A stretch of DNA of 64,000 bases from Schmidtea nova (taxonomy: Eukaryota). Positions 5,550 to 62,357 of this stretch are shown here, piece by piece (positions within the stretch are counted from its first letter, which is position 1; every line of letters begins with the position of its first letter). The translations under genes and the position numbers were made by a program. The stretch is from contig CM097882.1 of assembly GCA_044892505.1 (NCBI GenBank), positions 309,194,001 to 309,258,000 on the forward strand, in the 5' to 3' direction. The notes beneath the pieces are model-generated. The model did not search any database. It saw only the letters and a list, made by a program, of their open reading frames with translations, and was not told the DNA's origin.

Positions 5550-6829
5550 GTCAAATTTTGTTTTCTAATTTTATATTCAAACATTGTTTTGAAAATATCT
5601 TTTTAACATTATGTGCTCAATGCGTCATGGGACGTGTTACCATAAACGCAAATTTCTGTAGCACGGATTTTATAAAATTATTTTATTTTTGCAATCAAAT
5701 GTTAAATTTATAATTGCTTATTTAAAAAAGTAAAATTTTCATTAAATCAAAATGGAATTTCAATAAAAAATGAATGTTTCTCAATTGTTTATATATGATA
5801 TTCTAAGATTTTTAATACGAATGAATTATTTTATATTCAAACTCTTATAAACTGAAAGTGTTTATTTCTTAGCTATCACACTGTATATTATACTTACATA
5901 AAATTTCTCTTACACAAAATTTTTGTTTTGTATTATAGGTAACTAGATGTTATTTTTCTATTTAATAAAAAGTGTTATTTTCTTAATTTAAAAAACTATC
6001 CATATTGTTGGTTGTGCGTGGTGATTTATTTAAATCTGCAGATGATCTGACCATCACTTATCTAGGGTCACGACAAAATACATAAAAAGCTTTTTGCCCG
6101 AATGCCCGTAAATACCCTTGATACTGCATATGTCAGACGAATGTGAATCAGCAAGTGAGCGTCTGTGTTACAACAATAAACCAACGAATTTAAATAATAA
6201 ACTGTATTTATACGAAAGAAAAGAAAACACTACTCACGGTGAATAATAACAAATGCCTTCTTATTTCAATTCGATTTTTTTTTGAAATTTTTCTTTTTTC
6301 TAGTACACTTAATTTTTTGTTAATCTCCAATTAAAATCTTGGTTTTTTGAATTTATATTTTGCTGGGTTCATGGAGGGGTTAGATGAAAAATGCTCTAAC
6401 AATGACTAGGGATCCCTCATCCATGATCATGCATAAAATTGCAATTCTACACTCAAGCGCCCTTGACTACTTCCCTATATAATCAAGTTGGTGATGCGCA
6501 GGGTGGTTAAACAATGATGGGCAGGTGAGCACTATTACTAGTACTACTCCCCATTTATGTTTACGGGTTCATTGCTGCCGTTAGAAGGACTTACGCTCAA
6601 ATCATCCGCTTAGGTATTCCGCAATAATCTTTTAGAAAATTTATCTTCAACATCGCTTATTCTGCATGACGTATTTCAACAAAATGCTCGCTTAATTATT
6701 CATTTGCCTTTATTAGGTATTTTGTGAGATGAGTTTATAGTTTTATTCTACAGTTATCTAATTATTTGTCAAGTTAATTAAATCACTTTAAATGAACAAT
6801 AACAATTTTAAGATAACACGAAAATTTAT

Positions 6830-7426
6830 TCAATCTTTAATTAGTTCAGTGAAAACTCCAGCTGGGGGAAAGATTTCCGTTAATAATTCCCCTTCGGTCA
6901 TTTGATGCAGGCCATCTACTTGGCTCTGTAATCGTTGGGCAAATAGTTTCCTTTGCCTTCGCCGTTTCTGCCCAATGCGCTTGCGTTTCTGGTGCGCATT
7001 TGCAGTTGAGGTGGATGGATTTGTTGCCGGAACCGGCTCGTTTTGGCTTCCGATTAGATCAGCGACGTCCGTGCCAATCGAGTTGACGATCTTCTTTTCC
7101 GATGTCCATTCCTGATATGTAACGGGACGGATTTGATCTCTAAGTTCTTTCTCAATATAGGAGGCAGTTACAGAATGGAGGCATTTTCGAAGCTCTATTT
7201 TAGTAGCCTCCCATTCCATTTTATAATCTGCTGCAGTTTGCTGGGCACGTTCGGTTTTACTGATTTGCTCCTTCATCCTAGCCGGAGCAAACCAGCTTTT
7301 GCGTAAATATGTGACCTGCGCCTCGGCTTTGACTAATTGCGCTTTGAGGAGACCCAATTCCTTGTCCTGGGCTCTCCGGATCCGCCACATCTTTTCTAAC
7401 TCCCTTTGTGCCAGATCGGTATTCAT
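6830..7426 (-). CDS. Family ORF B, 198 aa: coiled-coil-like N-half and Arg/Lys-rich C-terminal patch; unknown function
   Basis: Intact ORF. Motifs WFAPARM, TKIELRKCL, QIRPVTY and KRKRIGQKRRRQ recur in copies C, D, E, F, G and the 36 kb fragment. Confidence 0.8.
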   Translation of the reverse strand: MNTDLAQRELEKMWRIRRAQDKELGLLKAQLVKAEAQVTYLRKSWFAPARMKEQISKTERAQQTAADYKMEWEATKIELRKCLHSVTASYIEKELRDQIRPVTYQEWTSEKKIVNSIGTDVADLIGSQNEPVPATNPSTSTANAHQKRKRIGQKRRRQRKLFAQRLQSQVDGLHQMTEGELLTEIFPPAGVFTELIKD

Positions 7427-7620
7427 TCTACAATTGATGTACTATAATTACTTTTGTCACTTTATGGTTCAATTATGTGTAAAATTAAAAACCGGAATAC
7501 ATGATTATTAGGATTAAGAACGGGGTCGGTTTAGCAATACAGAACAAAGAAAAAACTCAAAACAAAACCACTGATGAACATTAATATTTTTACTCAGAAA
7601 CAAATTATTGTCAAAAATTG

Positions 7621-8100
7621 TTATCGCCGAAATAGGCTGTGCATCTCGTTGTTTATCGGCATCTGACGAAGGCGAGCCCAAGAGAATGAAGGTTGCCCTT
7701 TCCGGCATTCCTTGCCGAATGGTTTCCGCGGCAAAAACTCGTGCAGGCCCAATTGACACAATTCTCGGCGAGGGATATGTCCCCAATAAATTATACGGCT
7801 CGCTCGTCCTGCTGCGTCCTTTATTACCACGATCATTTGGCCAAACTTGTTTGAGTAAGGCCTTTGGGAAATTGGCCAGTTCGGTCCTCCACGATAGAGT
7901 ACTTGGTCACTTCCTCCTGTCCATATCGAAAACGGGCATTTTCGACCAAACCCATGTCTCCACTTGAACATTTGAGCGTTGAGGGTCCGCAATATCGGTG
8001 CCGGTAACTCCTTGAGTTGGGAGACCGTTTCATTGTCTGTATTCCATCGTTCCCAATTCCGCATTTGAGTCAATTGGTTCATAATCTCGGCTGTCGGCAT
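7621..8100 (-). CDS. Family ORF A, 159 aa; unknown function
   Basis: Intact ORF. Motifs LKxLP, KWR, KCPF, YRGGxxW and IYWxHIP recur in diverged copies. Confidence 0.8.
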   Translation of the reverse strand: MPTAEIMNQLTQMRNWERWNTDNETVSQLKELPAPILRTLNAQMFKWRHGFGRKCPFSIWTGGSDQVLYRGGPNWPISQRPYSNKFGQMIVVIKDAAGRASRIIYWGHIPRRELCQLGLHEFLPRKPFGKECRKGQPSFSWARLRQMPINNEMHSLFRR

Positions 8101-9258
8101 CTATATTACTTTATTGAATATAAACCATAGGATTTAACGGAGGAAATTTGTTGGACAATTTATTGATACCGCGTATAATCACAAAATTTAATTTAAAATA
8201 AGATTAATTTTATTTATCTTCGCCGTGATCTACCACGGTCGGAATAAAAAGTTCATAATTAGTCCTGTGCTATATACAGCATTCAGGAATTATAAAATTT
8301 ACTTTCAGAAAATGATTTTCCGCGCTATATACAGCGATCGGACTAGCTATTAGATAATTCCGCGTCATGTGCGACGATCGGTTTATTTTTAAATATTTTC
8401 AACTTGGTTTAGATTCCCCACTGCATTCCACCGCGATCGGAATTTATTTATCGGATGATCGTGACTGTGATGTGATTTTGTCTGTATTATCTAAATCAAT
8501 CTTATCGAGTCGTACTTTGACCCGTAATGAAATTCGAAATTCGATCGATTTGAATACCATTTTTCTAATTTAGATCGTCTCGCATATGCTCCAGAATCTC
8601 AAATTTTCACCCTTTAAGCTTAGTACTTGGGAGGCTAATACCTGACTTTCCTTCGGTGCTGCATACCTTCTGGTAGCTCTTTCCGCCTTTCCTACTGTGC
8701 CCCACGCTATGCCCTCTGTGCAACCGACTATGCGATATTTTAATTTTAGTTCGAAATTCGTCGAAAAATTTTACAATGCATTATGAAAATCTTTATCAAA
8801 TAACTAAGCATGAATCGAAAACCATTAGTACTAAATTAGCATCTTTACCCGTTCTCGAATTATGTTCACAAAATTAAAAATTACAAGAATAAAAAGGTTG
8901 AACCGCCATGTGAGACCGTGAGGCCCCACAACGACGACTCGGACTCCCTTGCCGCGTGAGCAGCCTAGGAAGTATAACTATATACATAGTTAAATTAAAA
9001 TATTAAAATAAAGTAAATTTAAAATATAAAATTATAATTGAAGAAAATCATGGATACATTAACATCATAAAATAAAACAAAAATAAAATATTACGTTCCG
9101 TACTTGAATGTATTATTGAATGTTTCCTCGGATTTGAAGTACCTCTGGTTCTCGAAAAATCGTTCGGTTAAATTTTAGTAATAAAAATAGTTCTTAGAAT
9201 CAAAGTTTAGTCTTGATTGTAAGTTTTGATAACAGTTGAGTTATGATTTTTGGATCGG

Positions 9259-9293
9259 TATTTATACTGATCCGTCTGGTTGGATTGACCAAT
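9259..9293 (-). promoter_or_regulatory. CCAAT box plus TATA box of copy A, pointing toward ORF A and ORF B
   Basis: TATAAATA on the minus strand at 9259-9266 and CCAAT at 9289-9293. The same 21-22 nt gap is seen in D (39571-39604), F (63769-63803) and G (30594-30625). Confidence 0.6.
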
Positions 9294-10249
9294 CAGGATC
9301 AGACCGTCCATCAAAGTATTTTTATTATTTTATTCTAACCTAAACATTATTTTGTTTCCTTTTCCGGTTTCTCGCTGGGTGATCCTGATTTTTCGAGTAA
9401 TTAATTAATTATTTGCACTATTATTTTATTTAATTCTATCTTTTCTTATTTCAGGCCCCCTTTTGTTGTTGTTTACCGGTTTATTTTCGAAAATTCCTTT
9501 TACTGAAAATTTATCAAATATTATTTGTCATTTGATTCTTGTTTTTAATTTGTTTTTATTGTTATTTTTATTTTTATTATTTCTTTATTATTTCATGTTT
9601 TCGCTCTTTTATTGTGTTTTTAGGTGATTTGGCGGGCCCAACAATTTTATAGTTTCTTTCAAATCTTTTTAAATTTCAAATTTTCTACCGTAATTTTCTG
9701 ATCCAATTTAATTTAATTTTTGTTTTCTTTTTAACCTTGTTTTGAAATTGGTTGAATGATAATAATGATAATTTTCAATTTTCTTTAATTTAGATTTTAA
9801 ATTTATAATTATTCTAAATTTTGTGATTAAAATTCCTATAGTAATTAGTTTACTATAGGAATTTATTTTGAATTTCTATCGCACGGCGATTAACCAAACT
9901 AAAAATAATAATAACAATAATAAAAAAATGAAGGGGGGGGGGCTAACCATTCATAACAAAGATATTTAATGCCGAGTGTTAACATAGTGACAATAAGAAA
10001 TTCCTGTTTGATAATTAAGACAACGGGTCTGATCACTTCGCTAAATTTATATCTCGTGGATTCACACTGTTTAGTAATTAGAAAATTATTCCTCCCCATT
10101 CTTCAGTGTCACTGATCATTATCTAATTCTCATACACTTTATAGACAGTTAAATGATATTAATTTTTTTAAACAATAAGAGCTGAGATGAAAACACATTA
10201 AATGAACAAAACTATAATTGTTGAACTACTACACTATGAGATGCACACA

Positions 10250-10530
10250 AATAGTCAGATTATGTATATAAAAAATTTGTCATCGGTATTAGCAGGATCC
10301 GGTGAGGCTCCGAGAGATTTCGTAATTGATGTTTCAGTTGCCGAACAGAACACGAATCTTCCGATCATTAGGAACTTCGCTCTACTGATAGTGCTTTGGT
10401 ATTGGATGAAGTTTCTCCTAGGTACCTCGCTAGGTGACTCCACGAAGTATTTTAAAGTGTCAGCCGGGTATTCACAATCGAGGTCGATAGGCTATTCGGG
10501 TACTTCGTGCAACACGATGTTTGGTTTTTG
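10250..10530 (-). pseudogene. Fragment of ORF A, copy-G subtype
   Basis: HEVPE*PIDLDCEYPADTLKYFVESPSE...GRFV aligns with copy G WHGSKPWPIDVDREYPEDLPGYFVESPTD...GRFV. Confidence 0.7.
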
Positions 10531-11386: not shown

Positions 11387-12255
11387 ATGAATCCAGATTT
11401 AATTTAAGTACTTTAAAAAGTTTGTCAGTTATATTCCAACGGTTTTTGAATCATATGATACATCAAGAGTTATCATTTTGCAATTTGCTCTATCTGGTCT
11501 CGATTTGTTAAATCGCATTGATGATCTCTCGCAATCAGATAAAAATGAAATAGTTGACTGGATTTGTGAGCTGCAAATATTAAATTATCAAACTGGCCGT
11601 TTAGAGGGATTTCGAGGTGGATTTTTCCCGAGTAATTGTCATCTCACAAACCAGATTATATGTCTGGTCATGTAACGATGACCTTTTCGTGTTTAGTTTG
11701 TTTGATGATTTTTGGTGATAATCTTAGTCGAGTTGATAAAACTGGCATTTTAAAATGTTTTAAAAATTTGCAAAATTCTGAAGAGGGCTGTTTTTGTGCG
11801 GCTCTTGACTGCCCAGAAGCAAACGTGAGATTTATATTTTCTGCTTTAGCTTCATGTGCAATTATAAACGATTTCAGCACAGTAGATGTTAATGCTGTTG
11901 TGTCGTTTATTTTGAAATGTCAAAATTATGATGGTGGGTTTCGTCAGAGACCTCGTGAAGAAAGTCACGGTGGCTCCACCTATTGTGCAATAGCAAGTTT
12001 AAAGATTCTGTCAAAATTAGATCTTTTGTTCCCTGAAAATTCTAGTAAAAGGAATTTAATGCTTCGGTGGTTAATAAATCGTCAGTACGAAGGACTTCAT
12101 GGAAGACCGCATAAGGACGACGATAGTTGTTATACATTTTGGATAGGAGCCTCATTGAAAATGCTTGGCTATGGACATTTAATAAATTTCCCTTCTTTGT
12201 TTGATTACATTGAGTCTACTTATGAAAATCTGGCCGGTGGATTTTGTAAATTGAA
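11387..12255 (+). pseudogene. PGGT1B: Geranylgeranyltransferase type I beta subunit, C-terminally truncated
   Basis: Motifs [56 protein letters not shown] and GGFCK. There is a +1 frameshift near 11405. A second frame change near 11630 is explained either by a frameshift or by a 23-nt GT-AG intron. The C-terminal repeat region is missing. Confidence 0.85.
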
Positions 12256-12269
12256 GAACTTGGGACATT

Positions 12270-12580
12270 CATTTGGTGATATCTATGAGATCGTTGTGAA
12301 AAATGCCGAAACTCTAGACAATGCTATTGATTATTCCGGATTTAAAACGCTGGAAAGGTCTTATCTCTTAAGAATTGCTGAAAAGGTCGTAGAACGACCA
12401 CAAAACATGTTCATGAGAGCAGCTGTTGGAATATACAAGGATGATAATGAAAGTGCAATTGAGACTTATAACTTAATGTCAGAGAAATGGTTCATACACG
12501 CTTCATCGATACTGTTTATTGCAGAATTGAGATATGGACAACCTTCCAGTTGTTTTCTACTGACAATGAAAGATGACTGC
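12270..12580 (+). pseudogene. RRM1: Ribonucleotide reductase large subunit fragment, fused in frame to PGGT1B
   Basis: [11 protein letters not shown]...[16 protein letters not shown]...[17 protein letters not shown]...[11 protein letters not shown] matches the class Ia RNR R1 segment. It has a short internal deletion and a degraded PTLFNAG motif. Confidence 0.88.
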
Positions 12581-12800
12581 CTTTCTTTTCGTCATATAAT
12601 GGTTTATCCAACAGTGTGGTAACCAGAATCATCTGCATCTTGACAGATATTTTCGTAATATTAAAAAACTTTTGACATTCTTTAATGAATTCTTCCAGGT
12701 TATCGTCTCTGTGAAATCTTTCTGGTAACATCCTGTCAATCAATAGGTTTGTTGGCGTGGTCGCCATATTAGCAGCAACGATATCGAATTCATTTTCTGT
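12580..12800 (-). pseudogene. Gypsy-like gag N-terminal fragment
   Basis: LPERFHRDDNLEEFIKECQKFF resembles the N-terminal gag helices of the other gags in this window. It abuts the end of the RRM1 piece. Confidence 0.5.
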
Positions 12801-18479: not shown

Positions 18480-20311
18480 AAAGAGGCATGAGACAAGATT
18501 AAATTACTTACGAAGGAAAAAGCTGGATTTCCCTGTCGATCCTAAAATAGAAGAAAACAAAAATCAATAATTTTATTATAATAATTTAACTTGGTATATT
18601 ATAAATCAACCAATTAAAAGTGGTAAATCTTGAACTTACGTATATATATTTCTTCCTTTACGGCGCTGGTAGTCGTTGATATTGGCCCAAAAATGCTTGA
18701 GGTTAAATTTTCTAATTTACAATTTCGTCTGAAATCTGAAATTAATATAAAAATTCATATTCATAGCTAAATTCATAAGGTTAAATTAATATAACCTTAG
18801 AAAAATCTACACCGTTGCCGTTACTAAGGCATCGGCGAAATTTCAAATATTATAATTATCGGATTTTTGATAAAAATGGAATTAAAATTATAAAGCAAGA
18901 TAGACATTAGGTATAGGGGATAAGAGAATTTTAGTTAAAATTTACTGAGACAAAAATATATAAATTTAAAAGTCTAGAAAATAATAAAGTTTGGTTAAAA
19001 TCGTCAAAAAATCAAATACCCCGAATATATGTGATGATCAAAGATTTTTCGATCCTCGAATTGAGTTGGCGATGGTATACTTGATTATAAGCTTAAAAAT
19101 AAAAAATGAATGAGCGAAAACTTCTGTGTTTCGAGACATGACTGTGTATAATAGACGGTTGTGAAAATAATCAATAAATTTCTATCGGTAAAATTATTTC
19201 ATCTTACTGATTTAAAATGAATATCTATAATTAAATTATGATGCTAAATAATGGCTTAAATGTGTTTTGAATGTGTGATTTTAGATTTTAGATTTCAGAA
19301 ATGAATCTCGAAGAAAAATTTGAGGAGATGCATCGGTTGATTTTGGAAAATGCCCGACATAATCGCCGGGTAGATCAGTGCTTTGCCGAGCTGGAAAAGG
19401 CGAAAACATCAGATTCCGACGCTTTGCAAATTATGACCTCCTGGATGGAGAAATGTCGAGCGCGGTGCAGATATATGGAGTCGACCTGGTCCGACAAGGA
19501 GACCGTCGACAAACTGAAGAAGCAGAACCAGATGCTTCTACAACAGGCTGTGGAAGACGCAATGAGATTGCGCGCATGCCGTGTCACGATGCGAGAGCAG
19601 GAGCTCTTGATCGAAAAATTGAGGGTGGATAGCGGCATTATCACTGCCATCTTGCCGAAATCATCGTTTCCACCCCAAGAATTGTTTCCAGTGAGGGTAG
19701 AAAAAGAGATCCTAACCCCTCCGGTTCCAGTGAAGTTTACGCGGCAGAAACCCAACAAAGGAGTGAGGGCTCGACTAAGACGTCGTCAGGAAGCGCGATT
19801 GCTGGGGCAAATACGCAGAGTCATCAGAAGTGATAGACATAACACTATTGTGATTTCTTGAATTGAACAAATAATATTTTCATCTTGTGAATAATGTTAT
19901 ATTTATTACCTTACTTTGTAGTTTATGTTATTGTTTTTGTTGACATTAAAGTTTTTGTGTTTGAAATATTTATTTGTTTGAATGCGTGAAGGGAATAAAT
20001 TGAATAGAATCAACTGAGGTTCAGTAGTAAATTTTAACTCGATATAACTTATGATTTTTTTTAAATAATGCATAGGAGGGACAAAATGGGCATTAAACCT
20101 TCTATCGGTAGCCCTTGGACCCAGGAGATATTCGGTCAATCATAGTTTCGTATTGACGACGCTCACTGATTGCGAATTCCCACCAATTTGTTGTATTACC
20201 AACGTTACATTGTGACGGGCAACAAGATGGTTATTTCAAAGTTTTGTATGTTGAGTTGTTGATACGAGCCATAGCAACGTCAAGGTCATATTGACGATCA
20301 ACAACCCACCA
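18480..20311 (+). mobile_element. Copy B1, divergent subfamily of the TG...CA family; 5' end not located
   Basis: The 3' end is CAACAACCCACCA (20311), with the family terminal motif in reverse orientation at 20100-20170. It shares upstream and downstream blocks with 42950-44231. Confidence 0.6.
19301..19861 (+). CDS. Divergent ORF B-like protein, 186 aa, intact
   Basis: Helical N-half with YMESTWS (compare YLRKSWF) and a basic patch KPNKGVRARLRRRQ. It occupies the ORF B position just before the terminal motif. Confidence 0.6.
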   Translation: MNLEEKFEEMHRLILENARHNRRVDQCFAELEKAKTSDSDALQIMTSWMEKCRARCRYMESTWSDKETVDKLKKQNQMLLQQAVEDAMRLRACRVTMREQELLIEKLRVDSGIITAILPKSSFPPQELFPVRVEKEILTPPVPVKFTRQKPNKGVRARLRRRQEARLLGQIRRVIRSDRHNTIVIS

Positions 20312-20780
20312 ATCGGACTATTGCGTCTATAGCTACATCCACTCTTGGCATCTTCGATAGAAGACGAGGCAATTTTGGGTTTCCTTTGACTTTATAAATA
20401 CGTGCTGGGTTCATAGAAGGGTTGAGAAAATAATACGTTATGGTACTAGGGAAACCCTATCCATATTCATACATAAATATATACTATTTCATTCGAGCGC
20501 CCCTAACTACTCCCTGTATAGTTATGTTGGAAATGCGCAAGGTGATTGGAAAATGATGGGCAAATGAGCTCCATTTCTGGAACTACTCCCCATTTATTTT
20601 AACGGGTTCCCGCTGCCGTTAGGAGGTTTTACGCTATTTATTTTCTTCAATAATTACGCTTGGTTCTCTTAAATAGATAAACACTATTTTTCAAATGTGA
20701 TTTAATTTACTTATAAATTTCTTAAACAAACAAAACGACAACAAAAACAAAATGACAATGTACGACATAAACAATTTGTT

Positions 20781-21375
20781 TTATTTTACAAAAAATTCGG
20801 GAAAATCTCCGTCGAGCGGAAGGATCTCGGTCAACAAATCCATTTCCGTTAACTCTACCATTTGATCAATTTGCGCCTGTAATTGTTGGTCAAATAACTT
20901 CTTTTGTCTCCGGCGCTTGGAGCTGATTCGTTTTCTTTTCTTAGTGCAGTTGGGGATCGATACTACTTTGATGGCGCTGGTGTTACCACTATGACCGGCT
21001 CTAAACCCTTGACGTCTGTTCCTACGGAACACTTGGGTTTCTTCTCCTTCACCAGTTTTGGTAGGTAATGAGCCGGATTTGGGTTCTGAGTTTAGAGTCG
21101 ATGAATGAGGTTGTTATCGAGTGGAGGCACTTTCGTAGTTCAATTTTGGTGGCCTCCTACTCGACCCGGTATTCATCTGTTGTCCGTTGAGCCCGTTCTG
21201 TGTGAGCCATCTGATCTTTCATTCTCGATGGTGCAAACCAGCTCTTTCGCAAGTATTGTATCTACGCTTCAGCCTTAGACAATTGGGCCTTTGTTTGCCC
21301 GATCTATTTTTCTAAACTCCGTCTGATTCTCCAAGCTTTATCCAGTGCGATCTGGTGATTGGATTCTTGGTTCAT
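20781..21375 (-). pseudogene. Copy C ORF B, with stops and frameshifts
   Basis: WFAPSRMK, EATKIELRKCLHS and KRKRISSKRRRQKKLF are recognisable. TAG occurs where copy A has Gln and Trp. Confidence 0.8.
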
Positions 21376-21548
21376 ACTATATAAAAGAAAATGTATTCTG
21401 ATAAATTGGATAGCTACTGTAGTTTCTATTATATGTTAGAGAAAATGTATTTTACCTTAAATAAATACGACTCAAATAACAGGACAAAATTTAAATTAGA
21501 ACAACAATTTATTTGATTTAATTCTATCACACAATTAACACTATAAAT

Positions 21549-22050
21549 TCATCTACCCTTCCCGAATACATGAGCGACGTGGAGGCCTTGGTTTATAGAG
21601 ACTCGTCGAATCTCTGCCAAAGAGCAATCGGACAAACTCTTCTCATGCCCTTTCCCGAGAGGACGTGGAGATGTGAAGAGGTTGAGTCCCAAACCGGCGA
21701 GTTCGCCCTGAGGGATATGCTCCCAATAAATCTTCTTCTGATCTGGACCATTTATAATAATTATCAAGCGTCCGAACTTCGGAGAATTGCAGTTGTTGGC
21801 CGCGATTGGCCATCCAGGACCTCCTCGGTATAGTATCCGGTCCCTGTCGGTTTTACAAGTGAAAAATGGGCATTTCCCCCCATTTTTCCTTCCACTTGAT
21901 CATCTGCGCATTGATTGTCCTCATGATCGGGGGTGGCAGGCCTTTTAACTGCCGATTGGCTCTTGTTATTGAATTGTAGACGGGCTTTGATAACCCTCTC
22001 TGTGATTTCACAAATTTTTCTACGGATGTTAGCTCCATCTGTTTTAACAT
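21549..22050 (-). pseudogene. Copy C ORF A, one frameshift in a G6 run near 21878
   Basis: Removing one G restores KWKEKWGKCPFF...ILYRGGPGWP...KKIYWEHIP. Confidence 0.8.
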
Positions 22051-25000
22051 ATGAAATATTGGTAGACTGATTAATATAAATTCCTTTCAAAATCTATGTC
22101 AAAATCGAAATTATTGCTCCAATTTAGAAAATGAGAAAATTATTATTGTTACGTGTGACGCAAACAAAAATTGGTTTGGCTAAATTAGTTGGGATAAAAC
22201 CGCATTATACTATTGGTTCTGTATTTAATTAAGAAGAAAGAAAAAAATCTGATAGACATTTGTCGAACACTGTCGCTTTGTACAGCGATCAGAACTATTT
22301 AAATTATTATTTATCATTAACCTGCGCTATCTACAGCGATCAGGACTATAAAAATAAATTCAAATAATATCTGTCGCTATATACAGCGATTAGATTTAAT
22401 AATACTGTCCCATGCGATTTTATTATGTGAATAGACCAAGACGAGATAAGGCGTGTAAGTAAATTTTTATCTGTGTGCGTGGATCAACTAATTCGCATTG
22501 TCCATATCCGAACTATCCATGGAATGCAATCTTATCAGCTATGTGAAATTGATCAAAATGTAAATCGAGGGTTTATTTGACTATTGTTAAAATTTATTGG
22601 TGTTTTTAACCGGTCAGTACAAACTATCCCTGTGCGTTATTAATTCAAAGTTTGTTACTTGAACAAGATGTTTTACAAACCAATGTCCTTAAGCGCAATA
22701 CGAATTCCCAAAAAACGGTGCCTACCCCTATGTATCTGTGTAATACAAATCCAATTTTTGTTTAAATAAGTACCGAAGCTGTTCCTAAGAAGTTAAGGCT
22801 ACTGATAGGTGATCCTAGTTAGAATCGTATCACTCTCTGTTTATTAAATTTATTTCAACCCTGTCCTATGTTGAAATTCAAATTTGTTTACCCAGTGAGG
22901 AATCCTTTCTGCTTCTAGGTGAGTCAAATTCAACTTGGTTTAATAAATGTACTACAAAAATTGTTCCTATGTGCAACCCTTAAAAAGTAACATCATAAAA
23001 GTTATAACTCACTCACCACCTAGTGGATCTAAAAAGCCCCACTAAGACGGCTTGCGTCCTCGCAGCGTTAGCTACTGAGGAAGCATATCTATTTAAATAA
23101 TAATAAATTAAAATGCATCAAATTTGAAAATAAAATCATTAACATAATTTCAACAAAATCATGGGAATATTAAAACATATAACAAATCAATTCGAAACCA
23201 CTGAACAATAAAATTAATTTACTTCTTTCAATAAATTCGGTTTTCTTGTAAAAATTCAACTATTGTCACTGAGTGCGTAAAAACGGTTTAATCGCTTTAA
23301 GTCCCTAACGCAAAAATATTTCTCCAAATTCTGATTTTCGGGTCGGTATTTATACTGATCAGGTTGGCCAGATTGACCATTCAGGATCAGACCGCCCTTC
23401 AAAGTATGTTCATTATTTTTAATTAATTAGTACCTTATTCTCGTTCAGTTTTATATTTTCTCGGCTGGTGGTCTCAATTTTCTAAGTAATTTATTAATAA
23501 ATTGTACTTTAATTTGTTAATTTTTAGGTAAATTTTCCATTTTTCTATTTTGGATTCGTTGTTGGCCTCTTCTTCACTTATTCGGATTATTTTTATGCTA
23601 TTTATTTTTATCCTTTTCCTTAGGTTTTCTGTGTTTCAATAATATATATTTTTTTATTTTGTTTTAATTATTGTTATATTTTTTGCATTTTTAGATTTTA
23701 TGGTGGGCCCAACATACGTATTAAATAATTCGGAAATACCCACAGGGAAAATCCCGCTACTAATACAAAATTATTTTTAATAAGAAACTCTAAACAAGAC
23801 CCGAACGAAAATCACTGCTAAGAAAACATATTGAATAATTACAGCACTTCAATCATTAGTATGCGGAGCTATCTAAGAACCATGCCGAATATTCCAAAAG
23901 GAGCGAGTAACATTGCCTCGCCATTTTTCATTGTTCTTCAAAAGTCGTTAAAAGTCGTGCCCCTTCTAGCCGCTTTTTTCATATGCTCTTCTTATGGCTA
24001 AGGTTTGGTGATACGTAGATTTTGGTGTGGTTACGATGCGCAGAGGTATAAATTTCTTGGACCTATCCGGTGGACTTTGCTAGGAACTGGTTGAGGGGTC
24101 GGATTCTCATAGCTAACTCCATCTATACATACGTATCTAATTTTTTTTTCCGACTCAAGTTCTTGCCCTTCTTTTCCAAATTAAGTTAATCGATTGATTA
24201 TTTAGTGCATCATATTGGTCAATCTTTATACATGATTATAATTATGGCATGGGCTTATGTATCTGTATATTTTGTCAATGAAAGAGAAAAATTCTTCGGG
24301 TTTGCCATAAATTCTGGCAATCATGCATTGGTGAAATCATTTTTCAAAAATCTTTGAAGAAAACTAAATAAAGTAATTCAACAAGAGAAACATTATTATT
24401 ATTTCGGAAGAAGATCATTTAAAAAATCTTTCTGAGATTTATATTTAAGGTGATAAATCTATATTTTGAGGATATTTTTAAGTTTAAAGGAAATGTCGCT
24501 TTGACAATGGAAAGCTGTCATTTTCCGCTTATCATATTGAAATTTCGTCTAAATAATTTTAGCTATCCTTTTCTGTTTCGACATTTCTTTTTTATAGTGT
24601 AATTTCTTGTTCCATGCTTTCACAACATTAAAACTCGCTGTAGCGACATTAATACTCAATAATCTTTACTTTTTTTCTTCAAAGCATATTTAAATTATTA
24701 CATTGTCCATCTAAATTTGATGAATTTTGTTTTGCGAAAACAATTCCATTTGTGCTTTGTTAATTTTAGGGTACCAAATTCGATTTTGACATTTGTTTTA
24801 ACGTTTAACGTATGAATTTATTAATTAAGCCGTTTTCTTATTTTTTGGTGGACGATATCCTCTTCTCTCTGCTATTCGCTCATCATTCTCCGGTCTGATG
24901 GATCCATAGCAATCACCCTCCTTCATAACTACCATTCCGACGGAACCGTTATTATAGACTGACTGGTATCCGACAGTTGGTTCTCTATTGCAATAGAGGT

Positions 25001-25755: not shown

Positions 25756-28545
25756 GTGATGAGATGAATTTACCATTTTATGACAATCTATAACAAAGTA
25801 AGGTATACAATCGCGATACGTACTTAAATGCAATTTAATTTAAATTCAATTATTTTTTTCAATACATAATATGTAAATTATATTAACTATACATATTAAC
25901 CACTTCTCCAGGGTTAAAGGCCTAATGAGGTCGGTTAACTGGGTGGACAATTGCCGTTTTCTATCCTCGCCGCTTCTAACTCTACTCTTTGATCTTCTAT
26001 GGTTCTCATTGCTCGATGTAACTTCTCCTTTACCACATTCATCTCAGCTGGAGAAAAATAATTGTCTTCAAGCTCTATGATCCGTCGCTTTAGTCGGCTG
26101 ATTTCTCCTTGGTTCAATGACATCGTTGGCCTTAAAATAAAGTAATGAAATTATCATATACCTAACTCGTTCATCATCGTTTTCTGTTCCTCATCATGCA
26201 TTCATCGTGCGTCTTTCTCCTTGTGCTGAAGTTTACTGAAATCTTACTCTCCACCTACTGACTGTCCTTTACTTAGCTTTTCTCATCGGGTCTACATCAC
26301 TCTCCTATACTCGTCGTTATCCCAAAATCATTATTACTACTTTAGTTACTACCCTATTACAATCAATAATAAATCAGAAGCCTTGATAGTCGAAATTTAA
26401 TATTTTTAAATACCAAAAATGCAAGCATTACAGATATAAATACATATATACACAATCACGACAAATCGATAAAGTCTATGTACTCTTCCTCTATATCCAT
26501 TTCCACGATGGCTGATGGACTATAGGGCGAATCCGTGGATGTTTCTGGTGGAGCGGGACCTAATACGAACCTCCCCAAACTCCAGAACTCCTCTACTAGG
26601 ATTTTCCCTGTTAAAAAGATTTTGAATCGCCCCCGAATATCCGTGGGCGACTCAACGAAGTATCCCGGCAGGTCTTCAGGATATTCTCGATCCACGTCGA
26701 TGGGCCACGGCTTGCTGCCGTGCCAAGTTATCGTATCGGTGCTGTCTCGTGATAGACTAAACGAAGGTATCAGTCCCCTCTCCGTGAAAGATGAGCGATG
26801 TTCGTCCACGATCTGCCTCTCAAGATCGGTGGGAATATTTTTGAGTGGTAACGCGCAGATGAGATAATTATTTACTGGTTCTGTCTCTTGTTATAAGACT
26901 CTTGCGTTTGATTATTTCCCCGATGAATTCGGATACAGACTTTCTCTATTGATTTGCCGGCCATTGTTAAATAATTTAATGAATTTATTATAATTATTAA
27001 TTAAGGAAAACTCCACGGTTGTGTGTTTTAGCCGCAAGAAGATGGTAGGTAATACAAGTTTGGACATGAGGCGATCTGCCCAGTTTACTAATACGGTAGG
27101 GTTCTACAGTGTTCATGAGTGCTCTCGAGCGCTCTCATTTTTGGAATATCTTCAGTTATTTAATTGGCATGATTCTACTCAAGTGGAGAATATCCCTTCT
27201 GCTAATTGCACATGCCGCCTTAAGTATAACGTAAATTACTGGCTTTCGTCGTGCAAATTGAAATTAGATTCTACTCGCAATCTTCAATTGCACTGTACAC
27301 TGCCAGCTGCCACTTGAGTTTCCCAATCTTCCCCACTCGCGAGTAAATAATCACTCTCCACAATTTCAGTCGACATTATATTGAAGTACACTTGACTTTT
27401 TCGCGTGAATTCATTCTCAAGAACGCCTTGAATATTTCTCTCAATATGCTCTCTTAATTGGAAAGGAGTGGTTTAGAACATTTACTTCACATTCTCTGCT
27501 ACTCGAGAGTTGATTTTTTGCATTTAGTAATACTACGATATATTGCGGGATTTCAGTTCACTGTAGGATCATCTACGTAAATTTTAATTACGGGTTGAAT
27601 TTATTAATTTCCGTTCAATTCGATCATGATTATCTCGACTCATCAATCGTCAGGGGTTCTGTCTCAACTATCAACGAAAATTTCTCAAAATCGCATTCGC
27701 TACTTTACTCACATTTCCTTTATAATGGCTGGTAATTTATAAGGAAGACTGATGTTCCTGAGATTTCTGACTTACGACAAGTTTGGGTTGGACCTACCTT
27801 GGTGTTCGGCCTGGGGATTACTGCTGACGTATCATGGTAAATTTAATTCGGTGTGCACATTAAACATTTCCTAGGTTCGCTAATTTATTGTTGCGGAATC
27901 TACTCGACCAGTTCTCCGACATTCATCACTGTGGTGGGAGTTTTATTTTATCCGGCGGGCATGTCGGAGTGTGTGGGAGGAGTTCAGGATGCAAAGACGA
28001 TGAACCAAAGTCTTAATCGTCGTCCAGTATTTCCCATAAAATTAGGGACATTTTCAATATTATTTATCAAATGGAAACTAGGTGCTTATCTATTCTTGCG
28101 CTAGTTTTTCTCAAATTTTCTCAATTTTCTCAAAAACATCATTTGGCCATTTCTAGCATACCAAAATAAAACTAAAAAAAGTTTTAAGTCTATTGGAAAT
28201 AAAAAACTTAGTTAAATACAACTGGTTAAAAAAGAAATTTACTTTATAAAAAAATATTAATTATCTGTCATTTTTTTTGAAACTTGTTTATGTATTCAAA
28301 TTTTTGGTAATTTAGTTTTTAAAAATATAAAGTAGTTTTGGCTAATTGTTATTTTATTTGAATTGAAATTGGAAAATTAAATGCTCTTTTTCAATTAACA
28401 TTAAAAATTATTATTTTTGCAACCTTTAACAATTTCTTATGCAATTCAAAACAATCAAACGGAAGCTCGGTAGCCAAAAACTAGTAAAAGCTGGATCACA
28501 TAAAGCTGTAATAAAGAAATACCTTCAAATTCCGATAAGAAACAA

Positions 28546-31283: not shown

Positions 31284-34200
31284 CAGGCCCGGCCTTAGGG
31301 CAAGGCAAACAAGGCGACTGCCTTGGGCCCCGCGCTTTTCAGGGCCCCGCGCTTTGACTAAACATTTTTTACTACATTTTACAATTTTAATACTATTGCG
31401 TAATACTTGTCTTTTATATAACATTATAACAAAGTATGAAGACAACTTTATATTTAATTTTTTCAGGATAAAATAATTAGAAAAATAGCGTACTAATATA
31501 ATAAAATTAACTATCTGCAATCTGACACTGACATTTATTTAGAAATATTACCATTAATATTAAGAAAACTAAAATACTAAATGAAAAAAATAGGTCGCCA
31601 CGCAAATTAAGTTTGCGACTCTTTGGTCGTCTAAACGTTTTGGAACGTTTTTTATTGCGTCATCTAAATTTAATACCGATGCAATTTAAATTGTTGCCAT
31701 TGATCATCATTAAAATGTAATATATAATAATTAATTATAATAACTTCGTTATTAACTTGATTTTTTATTATATACATGTTGAAAAAAAATGTTATACAGA
31801 AAACATTTAATTATAATATAACTGTACGAGTCAGTACGACAATTAGTTGAGGGCCTGAGGGGATATGCCACCAAAACGAGATCGCGATTTTGGCAGAAAA
31901 TATAAAAGTGGCAATGAAAAGAAAAAACAAAAAGCAACGCAAGAAACCCAAATTAAGGCATTAACCCAATCTCTCAATAAATTTCTTGTACAACAACATC
32001 AAAGTTCGTCAACATCGTCAACTTCTGAAGAATACAAAGATGCAGCAACTTATGAAAATAACATAGAGACAGAGTCTAGTATCGATACTTCTGATGTTGG
32101 GATTGTTGATTCTTCAAAGATTACAGGGACACGGACATCGGCAAACGAAGAAACAGAAGAGTTGGTTAATTTGACAAATGTAAGTGATGATTTTAGTGAT
32201 CCAGCAACTTGGCCAGAACATTTGAATGCAGACACTCGTTCTATAATTGTTTGCAAGGGGCCAAAAAAAATTGAAGAAAAAGATTTTCCAGCATATAGCA
32301 ATAGAAGGAAATTTTCAACAACCTACTGCAAACGACATATGGAAAATATATATTCAGCAGCTAACAACAAAATGTTTTGTTTCTGTTGCAAACTTTTTGG
32401 TAACACTTTGTCTGCTCTGGGATCCGACGGGATTTGTGACTGGAAAAATGCAAGTGTTAGACTCTCTGATCATGAGAAATCAAAGGGACATATGACATCT
32501 ACTTTGCAATGGTTTGAGCTGGAAAATAGGCTGACAAAAGGATGCACAATTGACAAACAGAGCCAAAAATTAATAAACAGTGAAAAGGCTCGTTGGCATA
32601 GTGTATTTCAACGTCTAATGGCTATCGTCCAATTTCTTTCTGAGCACAACATGGCTTTTCGTAGTTCAGTCGATAAACTACATATGGCACACAATGGAAA
32701 CTTTTTGGGTCTCGTTGAATTGCTGGCAAAATTTGATCCGGTTTTGCAAGAACATATACGAAGAATACAAACTGATGAAATTCATGATCACTACTTGGGA
32801 AAGCGAATTCAAAACGAGCTCATTTCGTTGATGGGAAATAAGGTAAGGGAAATTATTATAGAAAGAGTAAAATCTGCTAAATACTTTTCAGTAATACTTG
32901 ATTGCACACCCGACCAAAGTCACCAAGAACAGATCTCACTGACAATTCGCTATGTAAGCCCAGAAGGAGAATGTTCTGAAGTAATTCACGCGCACTTCAT
33001 TCGTTTTCTAGAAGTAGAAGAAAGTACTGGACAACACCTACTTGATGTCTTACTATTGGAACTGACAAGATTGGGCTTAGATGTTTCTGATATCCGCGGT
33101 CAAGGATACGACAACGGTGCGAACATGAAGGGGCATAAGTCAGGAGTACAGGCTCGTCTTTTACAATTAAATCCTAGGGCATTTTTTACCCCTTGTACCT
33201 GTCACAGCTACAACTTGCTGCTATGTGATATGGCAAAAACTTGTCCTGATGCAATGACGTTTTTTGGTATAATTCAACAAATCTATGTTTTATTTTCTGC
33301 TTCAACAAAGCGATGGGCTATCTTTTCCAAGTATGTTCGAAATATTTCAGTAAAACCAGTTTGTGAAACAAGATGGGAAAGCCGTGTGGAAAGTGTAAAG
33401 GCTGTGCGATATCAAGCAGGCGAAATCTATGATGCACTTTTCGAAGTTGCAGATCAAAGTAGTGATCCAAAAGCTCGAAGTGAAGCAGAGTCATTGTGCA
33501 AACAACTTAAGAACTTCAATTTCATTGTTTCAATTGCTTTTTGGTATGACATATTGTTCCAGTTTAATTACATCAGCAAAGAATTACAAAATATTTCTGT
33601 TGATCTAGCAACTGCAATTGACAGCATGGAACGTACTTGCAAATGGTTGAAATCTTACAGAGATGGCGGTTTTGAAACAGCAATAGCAATTGCAAAAGAA
33701 ATTGCTACGGACTTATAAGTTGAACCTATTTTCAAAGAGACGAGAGTGCGAAAAAGAAAAAAACAATTTACATATGAAGGAGAAGATGAAGGATTTGTAG
33801 ATCCACAAGAAAAATTTCGCGCAGATTTTTTTTAACCAGATTGTTGATGTTGCAATCGTGTCGATGGACAGTCGATTTGAACAACTACGAATGCATCATA
33901 ACTCGTTTGGATTTCTTTATAAATTTCACCAATTACAAAAAATTGATTTACTCAATAACAGTATGAATCTAGAGAAAAAGCTCACTGCCAGGGAAACTAA
34001 GGATATTGATGGTTTAATGCTTGCTGAAGAGTTGCAATCATTGAGTTCCATAATTCCTGCAGCCACCTACAACGATCCTGTTAAGATTTTGCAGTTTCTG
34101 TTAGTGAACAAGCGTTATAGTGACTTTCCTAACACACACATTGCACTTCGAATACTTCTAACTATTCCTGTCACTGTAAGTTCAGGAGAAAGAAGCTTTT

Positions 34201-34688
34201 CGAAACTAAAACTTATTAAAACCTATATGCGATCAACAATGATTCAAGATCGGCTCAGTAACTTAGCTATTTTGTCAATTGAGAATGAATTTGCTAAGGA
34301 TCTTGACTATAATGAACTTATTTCAGATTTTGCAGCAGCCAAAGCTCGCAAGATTTGCTTGTAGGCCTAATTGTAAAAACAAGGTGGAAGTATAGAAGAT
34401 ATAACCAAACCAACGCTATATAGTGTATATATATAGTTTATAATGTTAGGAACAGTGAACTGTCAATTAGCATGCCAAAACAAAACATTTTAATTTTAAA
34501 TTTGTACATTTTTTTTTAGTTTTATGATCGTCAGTTAAATGAATAAAACTGTAATTATTGATGTATCAACGCTGTTATAGAGTAAAAATTTTAGTAATTT
34601 AATTTTTTATTTCCCATTATTTTAATATATGTAGAATTACAAATTTTTGCCTTGGAAAAGGGCCCCGCATGGTCTAGGGCCGGCCCTG
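31284..34688 (+). mobile_element. Full-length hAT transposon (3405 bp)
   Basis: TIRs CAGG(C/G)CCGGCC(T/C)TAG and a perfect 8-bp TSD GCAGCACC. Confidence 0.95.
31865..34364 (+). pseudogene. hAT transposase (ZMYM1-like, DUF4371 plus hATC), one in-frame stop at 33716 and a frameshift in a T-run near 33830
   Basis: CFCCKLF zinc-finger region, LDCTPD, GQGYDNG, TRWESR and VSSGERSFSKLKLIK...RLSNLAIL. Confidence 0.92.
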
Positions 34689-36074: not shown

Positions 36075-36780
36075 AACTGGGTTTTTTGTCAAAAAACACA
36101 TTGGAAGGATCTTGGTGATCAACTCCGATTCGGTCAGGTCGTCTAGTCGGTCGACTTGATTTTTCATTTGTTGGGCAAATAAATTCTTTTGCCTACGCCT
36201 TCTTGCACCAATGCACTTGTGCGGCCCTGATGTCTTGTTCGATGCCTCCTCTGGCTTGTTTCCTCTATTTTGGTCGAATCCGACTTAATCGTTTGTATCC
36301 GTGCTCATTGAACAGAAGATCTTTAATTTGGCTTGCCGATTTTGTAACCCTTCGGTGATGGGTTTCCCTCGCAAGCCAGAGATGGAGAAACGGCCCATTT
36401 TCAGTTCCTGACATTTCCGAAGTGGTCGTGTGGAGCTACCAACTTTAACTCGAATTTTGAAACTCTGGTTGTGGAATGTGCTCCCAGTAGATCACCTGTT
36501 GGGGTCGCCCGATTTGGTATTTGATGAGAATCATCAAACATGCATATTTATTAAAGTAGCTGTTGTCCGTTGAGATCAGATAATTCATCCCTCCTCGATA
36601 TCGGATCTCCTCGAGGGGATTCTCCATTATGGTGAAGGGACACTTAGAGCGGAATTCCTGGCGCCATTTGCATATTTTTGGACGTCGATTGTATGTCGGA
36701 TCGATGACATTAGGTTTTTAAGCGACTTGATTAACCTCAGCTGCTGTACCTCGTATCTCTCCTTGGCTCAAATTCGCCAG
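36075..36780 (-). pseudogene. Internally deleted family fragment joining ORF A to the C-terminus of ORF B
   Basis: KWRQEFRSKCPFTIM...IRYRGG...VIYWEHIP, then CIGARRRRQKNLFAQQM...LTESELITKILP. Confidence 0.75.
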
Positions 36781-37546
36781 TTATTCTCATTGTCTTTCTC
36801 CAAAGTGCATTTTTTGTCCATTTTCTTATAAAATTCATTGGCATCAATACATTGTTGATCATTAACCTTGGTTATCAACGCAGTTCACCCTGCTGAAAAC
36901 TTTCATTTATGTTATTTCGTCTTACTAAAATTTATTTTCAACGATGCTCTCTGTTATAATAGTCTCATTTGTCCACGAGCCTTCCGGCCCCTCATATTAC
37001 CTCCTGGATCTCCATGATGTGCAGTCAAAACAAAATCCAAAATTTTTTACATCTCCACCTGAAAATTCTCTGTCGTGAAATCAGACTCAACTATCAAGTT
37101 TATCTCTGAAATTACCCTGGCGTAACATTGCTGGTTTGTTGGTTGATGTTTAACAAGGGATTTTGTCTGATGTTAATATTAGGGCAATTCCACCATCATA
37201 AAAATATTCTCCCTGCTGATGCCAATGACTCGCCTCTAATTGCTCATCATGTTGGTACTGCATCCAGCGTTGTAGTCTAATAGGGCAGGTGAGCAACCTT
37301 GGCGGTTACCATTTCCTTGTTAGAGCTACGGGTTCACCACTGCCGATAGAAGGCCTGTGTGGATTTATTTCGGTCCCAATTTTATACCTTCACTATATTT
37401 ATTTACTACGACTCACATTCTTTATTCCTCCGGTTCTCGTCATATATTTTATTTAATTTTCTTATATTACATCGTTCCTTATTTATGCAGACTATCCAAC
37501 ATTCATTTCATCATACAGGAAGACAAGTCATGTTCAATACATATAT

Positions 37547-38111
37547 TCAACCTAATAACACCGTGGTATTGATGACGTTCACTAGCTGCTTCTCCGATAA
37601 GCCGCTTAGCAGATCTACCTCTATTCTTAGCCTTTCCGCGTAGGCCCTCATTTCCCTACGACGCTTAGCTCCCAATCAATTTCTCTTTTTCGTCCTGGAT
37701 GACAATGCGTCTACTCTCGGCGGTAGCGGTATCACTCTTTCATTGAGTGACGTGAGAACTTCCTGGGTTTGCGTCTCCATACTCCTATGAGTAGGAGTCA
37801 TCCAGCGATCAAACGTGCTTGCCCTGATTAGCGGTTTTAATTGTTGTTCGATGAACTCTTTTGTAGTCGCCCTCAGGCAACGATTTAATTCCAATCGGAC
37901 AGCGGCTGTCTCCCGAGCCTGCTCCTCCAGCGCTCTCTCGGCGTTGTTGAATCTCTTTCACCTTCTCGGGGCTGAACCAGGCCCTTTTCATTGAATCGAT
38001 CTCTACGTTTTGTCGATTTATGTAGTGTTCCAATAATCAGATGCGCATTTGCAGTCGTCGGCGTATACGCTTTTCGTCAACCGGTCCATCTATAATTTGA
38101 ATGAGGGTCAT
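37547..38111 (-). pseudogene. Copy D ORF B, with stops and a frameshift
   Basis: AWFSPEKV, RLELNRCLRATTKEFIEQQLKPLIR and GAKRRREMRAYAERL are recognisable. Confidence 0.75.
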
Positions 38112-38324
38112 GTTAAAACTAGCTTAGTCGTTTAGCCACACCACGCACCTCTCTTGGTTCATTCATCAGGTCATTGGGTTAACAACTTCTCAACTCATCA
38201 GTCACCTCAACATCCAACATCAAGTTAGACAAGTCAGATACAACAATCGATTTATTTCAAACTATTATGACACAGTACTGATACTCAAATGTTGTCCAAG
38301 TCAACCCAGTCTTTGTCACACGGG

Positions 38325-38807
38325 CTATTTTTTCTTCGGGTTCCGCCTGGCCAGAAGTATTCGAGGTTTTTTTTTTTTTTTTTTTATGCCCCATGGCGGA
38401 TTAGGGTAATGCCGTGGTTCTCCTGTGACGACATCCCGCGGTTGATCCAGTAAGACGAATCCCATCTGTTGTAAAGTACGACCCGGAATGGGTATGAACG
38501 ACAATATCCATCGGGGGACATTTCTCTGATCATCGAATTGAACGAACCATTTCCGCATATAGATACGCGTAGAAGAGTCTCGTAGTGGCCAGGATGAGTC
38601 TCCCTCCCAGCGAATTCTAACCACGTATTGGTCCGGATTCAGATTTACCGTGGAGCCCGTATGCTCCCGTTTCCAATACCGTAAACAATGATTGGCTTTG
38701 GTTTGGATGATATTTGGGACTGGTGAGATTCCTTGTGATTCCTGGAAATTTGATTTCACCGTTCTACGACGACGATTTTTCCTAGATATTGGTAGTCCCT
38801 CGTTCAT
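38325..38807 (-). CDS. Copy D ORF A, 160 aa, with a poly-A run near the C-terminus
   Basis: RIRWEGDSSWP...FVQFDDQRNVPRWILSFIPIPGRTLQQMGF aligns with copy A VLYRGGPNWP...IVVIKDAAGRASRIIYWGHIPRRELCQLGL. Confidence 0.7.
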   Translation of the reverse strand: MNEGLPISRKNRRRRTVKSNFQESQGISPVPNIIQTKANHCLRYWKREHTGSTVNLNPDQYVVRIRWEGDSSWPLRDSSTRIYMRKWFVQFDDQRNVPRWILSFIPIPGRTLQQMGFVLLDQPRDVVTGEPRHYPNPPWGIKKKKKKPRILLARRNPKKK

Positions 38808-40621
38808 GTTTCTCTACAATAAGTTTAACTGATCAATCGGCCTAAACACCCCCACTTCATTCATACTCAACCTGCATCATTCCAATTCTCACGCAATCCT
38901 GCACGCTTATTGATCGCGTCCTCCTGACCTCATTCCGTTTACGTCATACATTCTCAACGTTCGTCATTTCATCGTTCTATCAGCATACTTACATACATGC
39001 CCCTTGGTTAGTATATTATGTTTCCCCACTCAATCTCCATGACCTTAACCGTGGTTAGGGCCTCAGACAACTTTCGTGTTTACTTAATCATTCGTTTATC
39101 GAATTATCTGTCCATGTGGTGTTGTAATGAACTGTTATTTCTCATCTAGAGTCTATGCATGCGGTCATCGATCTGTTTAATCATCTATTCTCTCGTCATT
39201 CATCACATGATCATCTAGCGCCCCTGTGTGCATCCCCTCCCGATCCATTGGTTATTTGAAGCTACGCCGCATCGGCTATCACCCATGAGGTATGGCTCTG
39301 AGAGGCCAAATTTTCACCCGTTGGGTCTGAAGACCGTCGGGACGTCTTCCTATTCCCCATCCAAACCATTCAAGCAAATCATGAGAGTTTCGAAATTAAA
39401 AACAATGTCAATGTATACCTTTTATTTCCAACAAGTTTCACAGGATATAATTGATTACAAAGTGCTTTTGGTATCAGGTTTATACTGGTATAGATAGGTA
39501 CAAAACTTTCTTTACACCAGGTAAAAATGCTGAGTGATTTTGATGCCCTCTTACTGAATTTGGCTGCCGCTTATATAGCCATTGTAGGTTGACGGCTAGC
39601 CAATCAAAATCGTTCTACGACTTTATAATGCGCTGAATTTATTTTATTTTTGATTCTTGTCATTTTTACCGTGGGTGTATTTATTATGAATATTTTGTAT
39701 CGCCAGTATTTTGTTACTGTGTTTCTGTCAAATTTGAGTGGCCTACCCATTCATTTAATGACTCCTACTTGGTTTATTTTGTAGTTGTAATTTTATCTTT
39801 CTACGCTTCACTGCTTTTATTTTCATTGATTTATTCTCCAATTGCTGGTAATTTGCTAGTTATTTTATCTTATTTTTCTTGCTTTTTATGTTAATTTGCC
39901 GGGCCCAACAACGTCGAAAAATCACAGGACCCGTTCCTGGAAAATGCCCATTCAAAAAATACAGAATTTCTGAAAATACCCATCTAATTTCTATAAAATT
40001 TACCACCCGCAAATCTCTCTTCAATGTCTCTAGTACTTATATCTAAAGTGTATGTTGTTTTTGATAACGACCTGTGATTTTCTAGCCTGCTTTTGCTAAT
40101 GTCATCTAGCTTTATTTTAATTCTGTTTTTATGTCTCTTTGAAATTGGACCAGAGCTAGCACTTTCATTTAAACCAGCAATAATCTCTAAATCATGAAAC
40201 TCTTTTTTGAAAGTACATAAAATAGCTTCATGTCAAATTGTCCAGAAGCAAAGTCTCTAATTGCAATTAACAATTATAATTCGTCGCTGGGTCTTTGTAG
40301 CAGGTTGTTACATTTCCCACGTGATTCTTTTATCCCATTGGTTTTGCTGCTCTCAATATTTCGACTAATCGGTATTCTGTTTTTGTTTCGGTTTCCATTT
40401 TCTACAATATTATTTACATTGGATTCTGACGTCGCTTTTTTTGGATTTCTACATTTATTTTTACTCATGAATATACACAATTTTTTTCGCTTTAATTTCT
40501 TTTTACACTGCTGGATGAATGACCATCCAGAAACCAAGAAGCTCAATCCTCCTCTTGTTCATTCGTTCTTTTATTTGTTAAGTGTTTAATTTCTATGGTT
40601 TGCCACTGGTTTGTTTCTTTG

Positions 40622-51248: not shown

Positions 51249-51376
51249 GAAAAATAATCTGGCTGCTAGTTTGGAAATGGGTGCTTCCCTACCCTCTTTG
51301 CTGGTCAGAGTCGGCTGCTAGTTTGAGTTGAAGTCGACATCCCTCTCTTTGCTCACCGACCAATATAATGTCCCAT

Positions 51377-62174: not shown

Positions 62175-62357
62175 ACTAAATAACAAACCCATTTTATGAT
62201 GCAGCAATTATGTTACCAACGATTAATATTATCCGTCGAGTGTAAAAATTATAGGATTAAATAAATAGAAATACATTTAACTAAGAACAAGCAAAACACA
62301 GATCAACACCATTTAATTTATAGAAACATTTAGTTCATAGTAATGTGAATAGAATTT

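Follow-up and report, generated by a model that had tools for sequence, protein, structure and literature searches.

Two genes under selection within the LTRs of a giant, Burro-like retrotransposon of Schmidtea nova

ORF A, a 159-aa open reading frame at 7621-8100 (-) of a 64,000-nucleotide stretch of the Schmidtea nova genome (hereafter, the window), is a real, selected gene, and it is not free-standing: together with a second frame, ORF B, it lies inside the LTR of a ~30-kb, env-bearing, Burro-like Ty3/gypsy element. The preliminary description of this DNA missed this main fact and, with it, that the copies in the window are mostly solo LTRs; its guess that ORF A is an accessory factor, here of a mobile element, is supported. 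The element is of a known kind; the selected two-gene cassette within its LTR is not described in the literature searched, which did not include the original Burro paper.

ORF A copies, subtypes and selection

Copy A, which contains the 7621-8100 frame, is a 3,283-bp solo LTR (6361-9643, -) with TG..CA ends and a 4-bp target-site duplication, ATTT; it aligns end to end, at 82-89%, with three of four full-element LTRs, and in two pieces with the fourth. Its ORF A has a core at approximately residues 26-119 and a TAG directly 5' of the ATG. ORF B (6830-7426, -; 198 aa) has a coiled coil, a linker with a TQT/GTD-like motif, an Arg-rich motif, and a C-terminal helix; TQT or a similar motif is present in the linker of 38 of 53 aligned copies, and these motifs may resemble the sites of dynein light chain LC8. 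The conserved 3' terminal block of the LTR (6361-6598, -) is also present behind the D-, E- and G-type genes.

The window holds eight copies or fragments of ORF A (A, C, 36k, F, D, E, G, and 10k), all with a common core of ~95 residues; ORF A of types A, C, D, E, F, G, and 36k has ORF B, or a relative of it, behind it. Copies A and F had been called intact, and ORF A is indeed open in both, while ORF B of copy F has one stop. Copy F is a 3' LTR (61108-64000, -; ORF A at 62358-62858) whose element runs past the window, with the LTR start at ~64154; L093 carries the 3' accessory ORFs plus the junction. Copy C is a solo LTR (20403-23714, -) flanked by a TACG duplication, with a frameshifted ORF A (21579-21978) and stops in ORF B. 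Copy E is an LTR of a diverged type (37129-39910, -; flanks acgt/atgt, a 3/4 match; 3' end placed by eye), and its ORF A (38325-38807) is also open from its ATG, at 160 aa; relatives reach ~197 aa. The remaining copies are damaged or partial: D-type ORF A (44409-44765, +) has three stops and is followed by an ORF B relative at 45318-45872; G-type ORF A (26459-26890, -) is a 144-aa open stretch without its start; the 36k copy (36460-36735, -; ORF B relative at 36102-36422) is broken, as is the G-type 10k fragment (10315-10518, -).

The proposed family of small proteins with at least three subtypes stands: the frame is present at 7621-8100, and the A/C/F profile joins the other subtypes at ~94, with a probability of 93.6 (E 2e-7) for D/E and 93.9 (E 1.6e-7) for G in comparisons spanning 93-99 columns. 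Compared directly, D/E and G are linked weakly (probability just 3.7, E 0.012); these two are thus joined only via the A group. The motif order said to run through all subtypes is literal in A/C/F/36k, but E lacks LKxLP and KCPF, and G lacks KWR and KCPF; the motif "D" and "Q" are both below 70% across 98 natural copies. What these 98 copies do have in common is a hydrophobic core with P33 (92%), an aromatic residue at 69 (94%), G71 (91%), W75 (99%), I109 (89%), and G118 (85%). ORF A is not low-complexity (entropy 4.0-4.2 bits), and the predicted structure fits the compact folded domain that had been supposed, with pLDDT of ~74-83 across most of residues 26-115. Pfam searches found no confident match of ORF A to a known TE domain, in keeping with the earlier reading.

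Is ORF A maintained, or is it a non-functional open frame hitch-hiking in the LTR? Stops are abundant in old solo copies, as hitch-hiking would have it, but pN/pS is 0.19 in the coding frame only, which has no stops in 17 copies; the other five frames contain 3.8-7.2 stops, and the reverse frame that shares third positions shows a pN/pS of 0.26, yet 5.4 stops. Moreover, the frame and the core are retained down to 10-20% identity between types, and hitch-hiking, which we consider scarcely credible, is already largely refuted. Among LTRs from paired hits, pairwise dN/dS is 0.12-0.24 for A-type (22 copies) and 0.19-0.39 for F-type ORF A (20 copies), and ORF B gives 0.07-0.30, in a sample made of best hits to intact proteins and of non-independent pairs. 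The window copy, compared to its 12 closest relatives (of 29), has a pN/pS of 0.21-0.33. Purifying selection keeps the ORF A reading frame.

The host element and its cassette versions

That the host is a Burro-like LTR retrotransposon carrying ORF A in its LTR is close to certain. A search of the 1.25-Gb genome returned 4,049 first-look candidates, 150 of which were scored; many are same-strand pairs tens of kb apart. All four pairs fetched consist of direct repeats, 3.1-3.25 kb long and 98.5-100% identical, that have TG..CA termini and are flanked by 4-bp target duplications. A primer site that pairs with the host tRNA-Pro(TGG) lies 6 nt past the first repeat; among the picked LTRs, 15 of 20 of the A type and 18 of 20 of the F type are followed by such a site. 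The interior of one pair encodes, in a single frame, CCHC, a Monjiviricetes fusion domain (mononegavirus-type, E 1.9e-71), protease, RT, RNase H, integrase, and ankyrin, with TRAF/MATH and RING as separate ORFs; the PR-RT-RH-IN order is present, and env is in frame between gag and protease (CCHC at 450-464, fusion domain at 2096-2436, protease at 2623-2713). One element, at C1:481012641-481042415, is 29.8 kb long with its LTRs.

Burro and GYPSM1 are giant gypsy-like elements of planarians (PMC6431247). Compared by description, the likeness extends to the ~30-kb size, the position of env in frame between gag and protease, the RT-RH-IN order, the accessory ORFs, and the ankyrin and MATH/TRAF cargo, all present in the available part of the Burro account (PMC6431247). 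That part does not name a gene inside the LTRs, and it places the TRAF/MATH ORF upstream of the polyprotein in the D. tigrina element, whereas here this ORF is downstream (PMC6431247). BIR, BCL2-like, and dUTPase-like motifs have no Pfam match at E 0.01 in our element; the Burro paper used HHpred for some of them (PMC6431247). A literature search, its scope drawn around work other than the original Burro paper and supplements, found no description of genes inside Burro LTRs.

Several apparent LTR pairs proved to be something else: those of the E and D types are larger duplications, one of them enclosing a Polinton-like element, and that of the G type is an inverted duplication. Full elements can thus be assigned only to the A, F, and L306 types, while the E type is linked to a 3' junction (L206). 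LTR pairs of 40-44 kb (L037-L038, L043) enclose another env-bearing gypsy polyprotein, and an exonuclease ORF is present in one case. The tRNA-Pro genes form a tandem array with a 308-bp period at G000:C1:459.61-459.66 Mb, with 1,106 pattern matches genome-wide. A gag-region fragment from the same element family, ~53% identical, lies in the window at 49267-49964 (-).

In a comparison of nine elements (five A, four F), RT/RNase H is 99-100% identical between the types (a partial RT is at 96%, and RT is absent from one element), with the same pS, 0.17-0.28, across types as within them; by contrast, ORF A of A and F is 41-44% identical, with saturated silent sites. The two types split at 100/100 in the ORF A tree and are intermixed in the RT, IN, and TRAF trees, with an F clade rejected by TRAF (p-AU 0.0135) but not by RT or IN (p-AU 0.20 each). 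A third version, L306, has an ORF A that is 34% identical to A and 32% to F over ~100 residues, and a 99% identical RT. Deeply diverged cassette versions (32-44% ORF A identity) thus share one backbone. In the A type, cassette silent sites diverge ~2-3 times more than RT silent sites, so turnover of LTR DNA may account for the deep alleles, which may then say little about the job of the protein.

Three such versions on a nearly constant RT could also be read as a lineage marker or interference factor, each version restricting, or being blind to, its rivals and so keeping the versions apart on the shared backbone. We regard this as improbable: homology loss by itself stops recombination inside the cassette, and the lower diversity of the F versions (pS 0.08-0.18) fits a recent capture from a distant family.

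Relatives that lack ORF A are part of the picture. The genome contains 2,946 primer-site matches, which are not a tally of ORF A elements; of 20 such loci sampled at the beginning of C1, one has ORF A, namely L306. In eight related tRNA-Pro elements without ORF A, no RT was found in 10-20 kb downstream (10 kb was scanned for four of them, and one of these four gave no hit at all); this small sample fits autonomous elements supplying the ORF A product in trans. Could the LTR genes of this provirus-like invertebrate element form a self-contained regulatory cassette of two genes 3' of the LTR promoter, whose ancient alleles are exchanged within a single recombining gag-pol pool, with the many solo LTRs as stand-alone units that would express a new-fold anti-silencing protein in trans and also serve the ORF A-less relatives? 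So complete a scheme seems rather unlikely.

Five tRNA-Pro elements (L300, L303, L308, L312, and L317) have the same 3' LTR block and no ORF A or B; the LTR hairpin described below and a gag-like ORF are each present in 4/5, and L303 has an LTR of ~1.4 kb, with a second LTR ~10 kb further on. A second LTR family, 4-5 kb long and ending in CCACCA, has a 186-190 aa coiled-coil and basic ORF near its 3' end in 3 of 13 copies; this ORF, like ORF B in layout and unlike it in sequence, was located in the window at 19301-19861 (+) and in L309, L314, and L315. Elements of the L309/L314/L315 type encode RING, protease, ankyrin, and TRAF, with no RT seen in 20 kb.

Expression signals in the LTR

How could a gene within an LTR be expressed? 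In copy A, a putative promoter (9259-9294, -) combines a GATTGG box with TATAAATA, placed ~377 nt into the LTR. All of the listed full-length LTRs of types A and F have TATA at one common offset, and the E type has an identical spacing between the GATTGG and TATA boxes. Approximately 25 nt past TATA, identity drops from 0.96-0.99 to 0.64-0.66, marking a putative start of transcription. Another TATA, close to the 3' end of the LTR, was discarded because it is not conserved in F or C. Further on, a donor-like GTAA (9091-9094, -) ends a putative first exon free of ATGs; the site is present in 41 of 42 LTRs, with no ATG 5' of it in 40 of 41. L149, an element with paired LTRs, is without the donor-like site; its deletion was considered as a removed intron and rejected, as its ends do not fit intron ends.

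ORF A begins ~1.1 kb 3' of the promoter signals, behind 4-25 other ATGs, so scanning to it would be blocked. A YAG no more than 2 nt from the ATGs of ORF A and B is present in all A-type (22/22) and F-type (19/19) LTRs, as compared to 198 of 2153 background ATGs (9%); these counts represent two lineages, not 41 independent cases. YAG is also found 5' of three of four internal accessory ORFs checked; L306 ORF A has none within 12 nt 5' of its ATG. Searches of the genome found no copy of two predicted splice junctions, nor of a direct promoter-to-3'-block junction, and the contigs of four runs contain no joint with canonical intron ends. Together, the conserved TATA, the donor-like site, and the acceptor-like AG before the ATG suggest that ORF A is probably expressed by splicing. 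Spliced-leader trans-splicing occurs in Schmidtea, as reported in the available part of PMC12582326, and the host spliced leader may supply the first exon. In the model built on these signals, transcription would begin ~400 nt into the LTR, and a short first exon would be joined, in cis or by the host spliced leader, to the AG before the ORF A ATG; with a spliced start within the LTR, 5' LTRs and solo LTRs alike could make ORF A protein.

A conserved two-hairpin block (8887-8978, -), a candidate packaging or response element, has 96% of its cells paired and no Rfam match; 3 of 21 pairs show two-sided changes, which come from few events. The cassette may resemble Rev/Rex systems, and it might work as an RNA-fate module of this sort, in which the Arg-rich motif of ORF B would bind the LTR hairpins, with ORF A as a cofactor, and the unspliced 27-kb RNA would be exported or packaged. 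The block lies 3' of the donor-like site, hence only unspliced RNA would retain it; ORF B combines a coiled coil with a basic motif; and acceptor-like sites precede several genes. Yet the hairpins are kept in four of five short LTRs that lack ORF A and B, the covariation is sparse, and G-type ORF A is acidic, so we hold such a module to be possible but doubtful.

The ORF A protein, its possible role and precedents

Word-indexed searches at near and longer lengths found no ORF A homologues. An HMM scan of 1.84 billion representatives with a 36-sequence ORF A profile gave two hits, both Cys-rich repeat proteins, which were rejected; there was no usable Atlas hit and none in PDB sequences, Pfam, PHROGs, or viral or metagenome contigs. 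An AlphaFold model from the 98 natural copies (pLDDT 67, pTM 0.62, as compared to pLDDT 43 for an earlier model from 36 sequences) predicts two helices, three strands, and a helix. Fold searches with this model returned nothing usable; their best match, Z 2.9, is to acetyltransferases and is below chance level. Might ORF A be a degenerate, truncated acetyltransferase (GNAT) fold? Acetyltransferase-type entries make up 8 of 14 rows of a wide fold search, and Pfam Acetyltransf_3 gives weak hits (E 0.11 and 0.078). These come from 1 of 98 copies, and an Acetyltransf_3 search of the genome found nothing; the best structural match has an rmsd of 4.2 Å with a model of pLDDT 67, against a usual chance level of Z 7-8. 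GNAT acetyltransferases have a glycine-rich CoA-binding loop, and the ORF A alignment has no conserved glycines after the third strand, where this loop would be. A GNAT fold is very improbable.

ORF A has no membrane helix (best 19-residue hydropathy mean, 0.8-1.3) and no invariant catalytic residue (in 98 copies, all D, E, H, and C columns stay below 70%), and its charge varies, with pI from 4.5 (G) to 11 (E). These properties favor protein binding, which is more likely than catalysis or general nucleic-acid binding. The suggestion in the preliminary description that ORF A binds nucleic acids is weakened as a conserved property, as all four full-length G-type copies are acidic (pI 4.5-5.1), while A, F, and E are basic; the anti-silencing role also suggested there is conjectural. 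Since the element has env and ORF A is found with RT-bearing elements, ORF A could instead be a particle-associated accessory protein, matrix-like or Vpr-like, for entry or integration; the lack of a membrane helix and of any viral fold match, and a position at the transcript front that suits an early product, make this quite unlikely.

The reading that we favor, tentatively, is that ORF A is a selected LTR gene for a likely soluble, non-enzymatic accessory protein which, with ORF B, would keep the element expressed in trans against the host; a regulatory role for ORF A is likewise plausible but far from assured. The folded core of ORF A would bind another protein, either ORF B or one of the host, via a conserved aromatic patch, and ORF A and ORF B would act in trans to hold element expression against host control. 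By analogy, we infer an accessory protein that acts in trans, as in complex retroviruses, whose small accessory genes (MMTV sag, HIV nef/tat/rev) are spliced from one leader. Of these genes, sag and nef overlap with the LTR; their place is in U3, before the start site. By contrast, ORF A is apparently 3' of the promoter, which means that it could be expressed from a solo LTR, and it has no sequence similarity to these genes.

Other precedents are known from the accessible parts of the respective reports. Drosophila MDG1/412-group elements encode sORF1, a nuclear protein of unknown function, and sORF2 (PMC11952523): like ORF A and B, these are two small selected ORFs ahead of gag, with a short transcript, but they are upstream of gag on unspliced RNA, are 70-110 aa long, and include a transmembrane fusogen, sORF2. 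Located within the LTR, ORF A and B exceed them in size and lack a membrane helix; the hydropathy of ORF A falls short of the central transmembrane helix of sORF2/FAST fusogens. VANC, an anti-silencing protein of Arabidopsis VANDAL elements, is also a TE-encoded, trans-acting accessory protein that diversifies between lineages, but it belongs to plant DNA transposons and targets DNA methylation, and no sequence link to ORF A was found (PMC5735166). The additional ORFs of plant LTR retrotransposons are, similarly, conserved orphans of unknown origin and function, yet their place is internal to the element, in most cases after pol and before the 3' LTR (PMC7264820).

Solo LTRs are usually seen as leftover promoters; here, they retain two genes under selection together with promoter-like signals, and the genome has thousands of candidate copies. 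The cassette bears on the question of how retrotransposons of animals counter piRNA-type silencing; according to the available part of PMC8532177, the main targets of the planarian PIWI protein SMEDWI-2 include LTR elements. With a small orphan gene whose natural alleles sit on a constant backbone, the silencing question becomes testable.

The window also contains a prenyltransferase domain and a ribonucleotide reductase fragment fused in one open frame (11660-12622, +), by their look captured gene pieces; a hAT-like transposase (DUF4371; 31865-34364, +) with a short break between two ORFs; pieces of a Polinton-like DNA polymerase B and a non-LTR RT element (53494-56589, -, and 57426-61130, +); and tandem arrays with 46-bp and 15-bp units (51374-51838 and 46486-46925).
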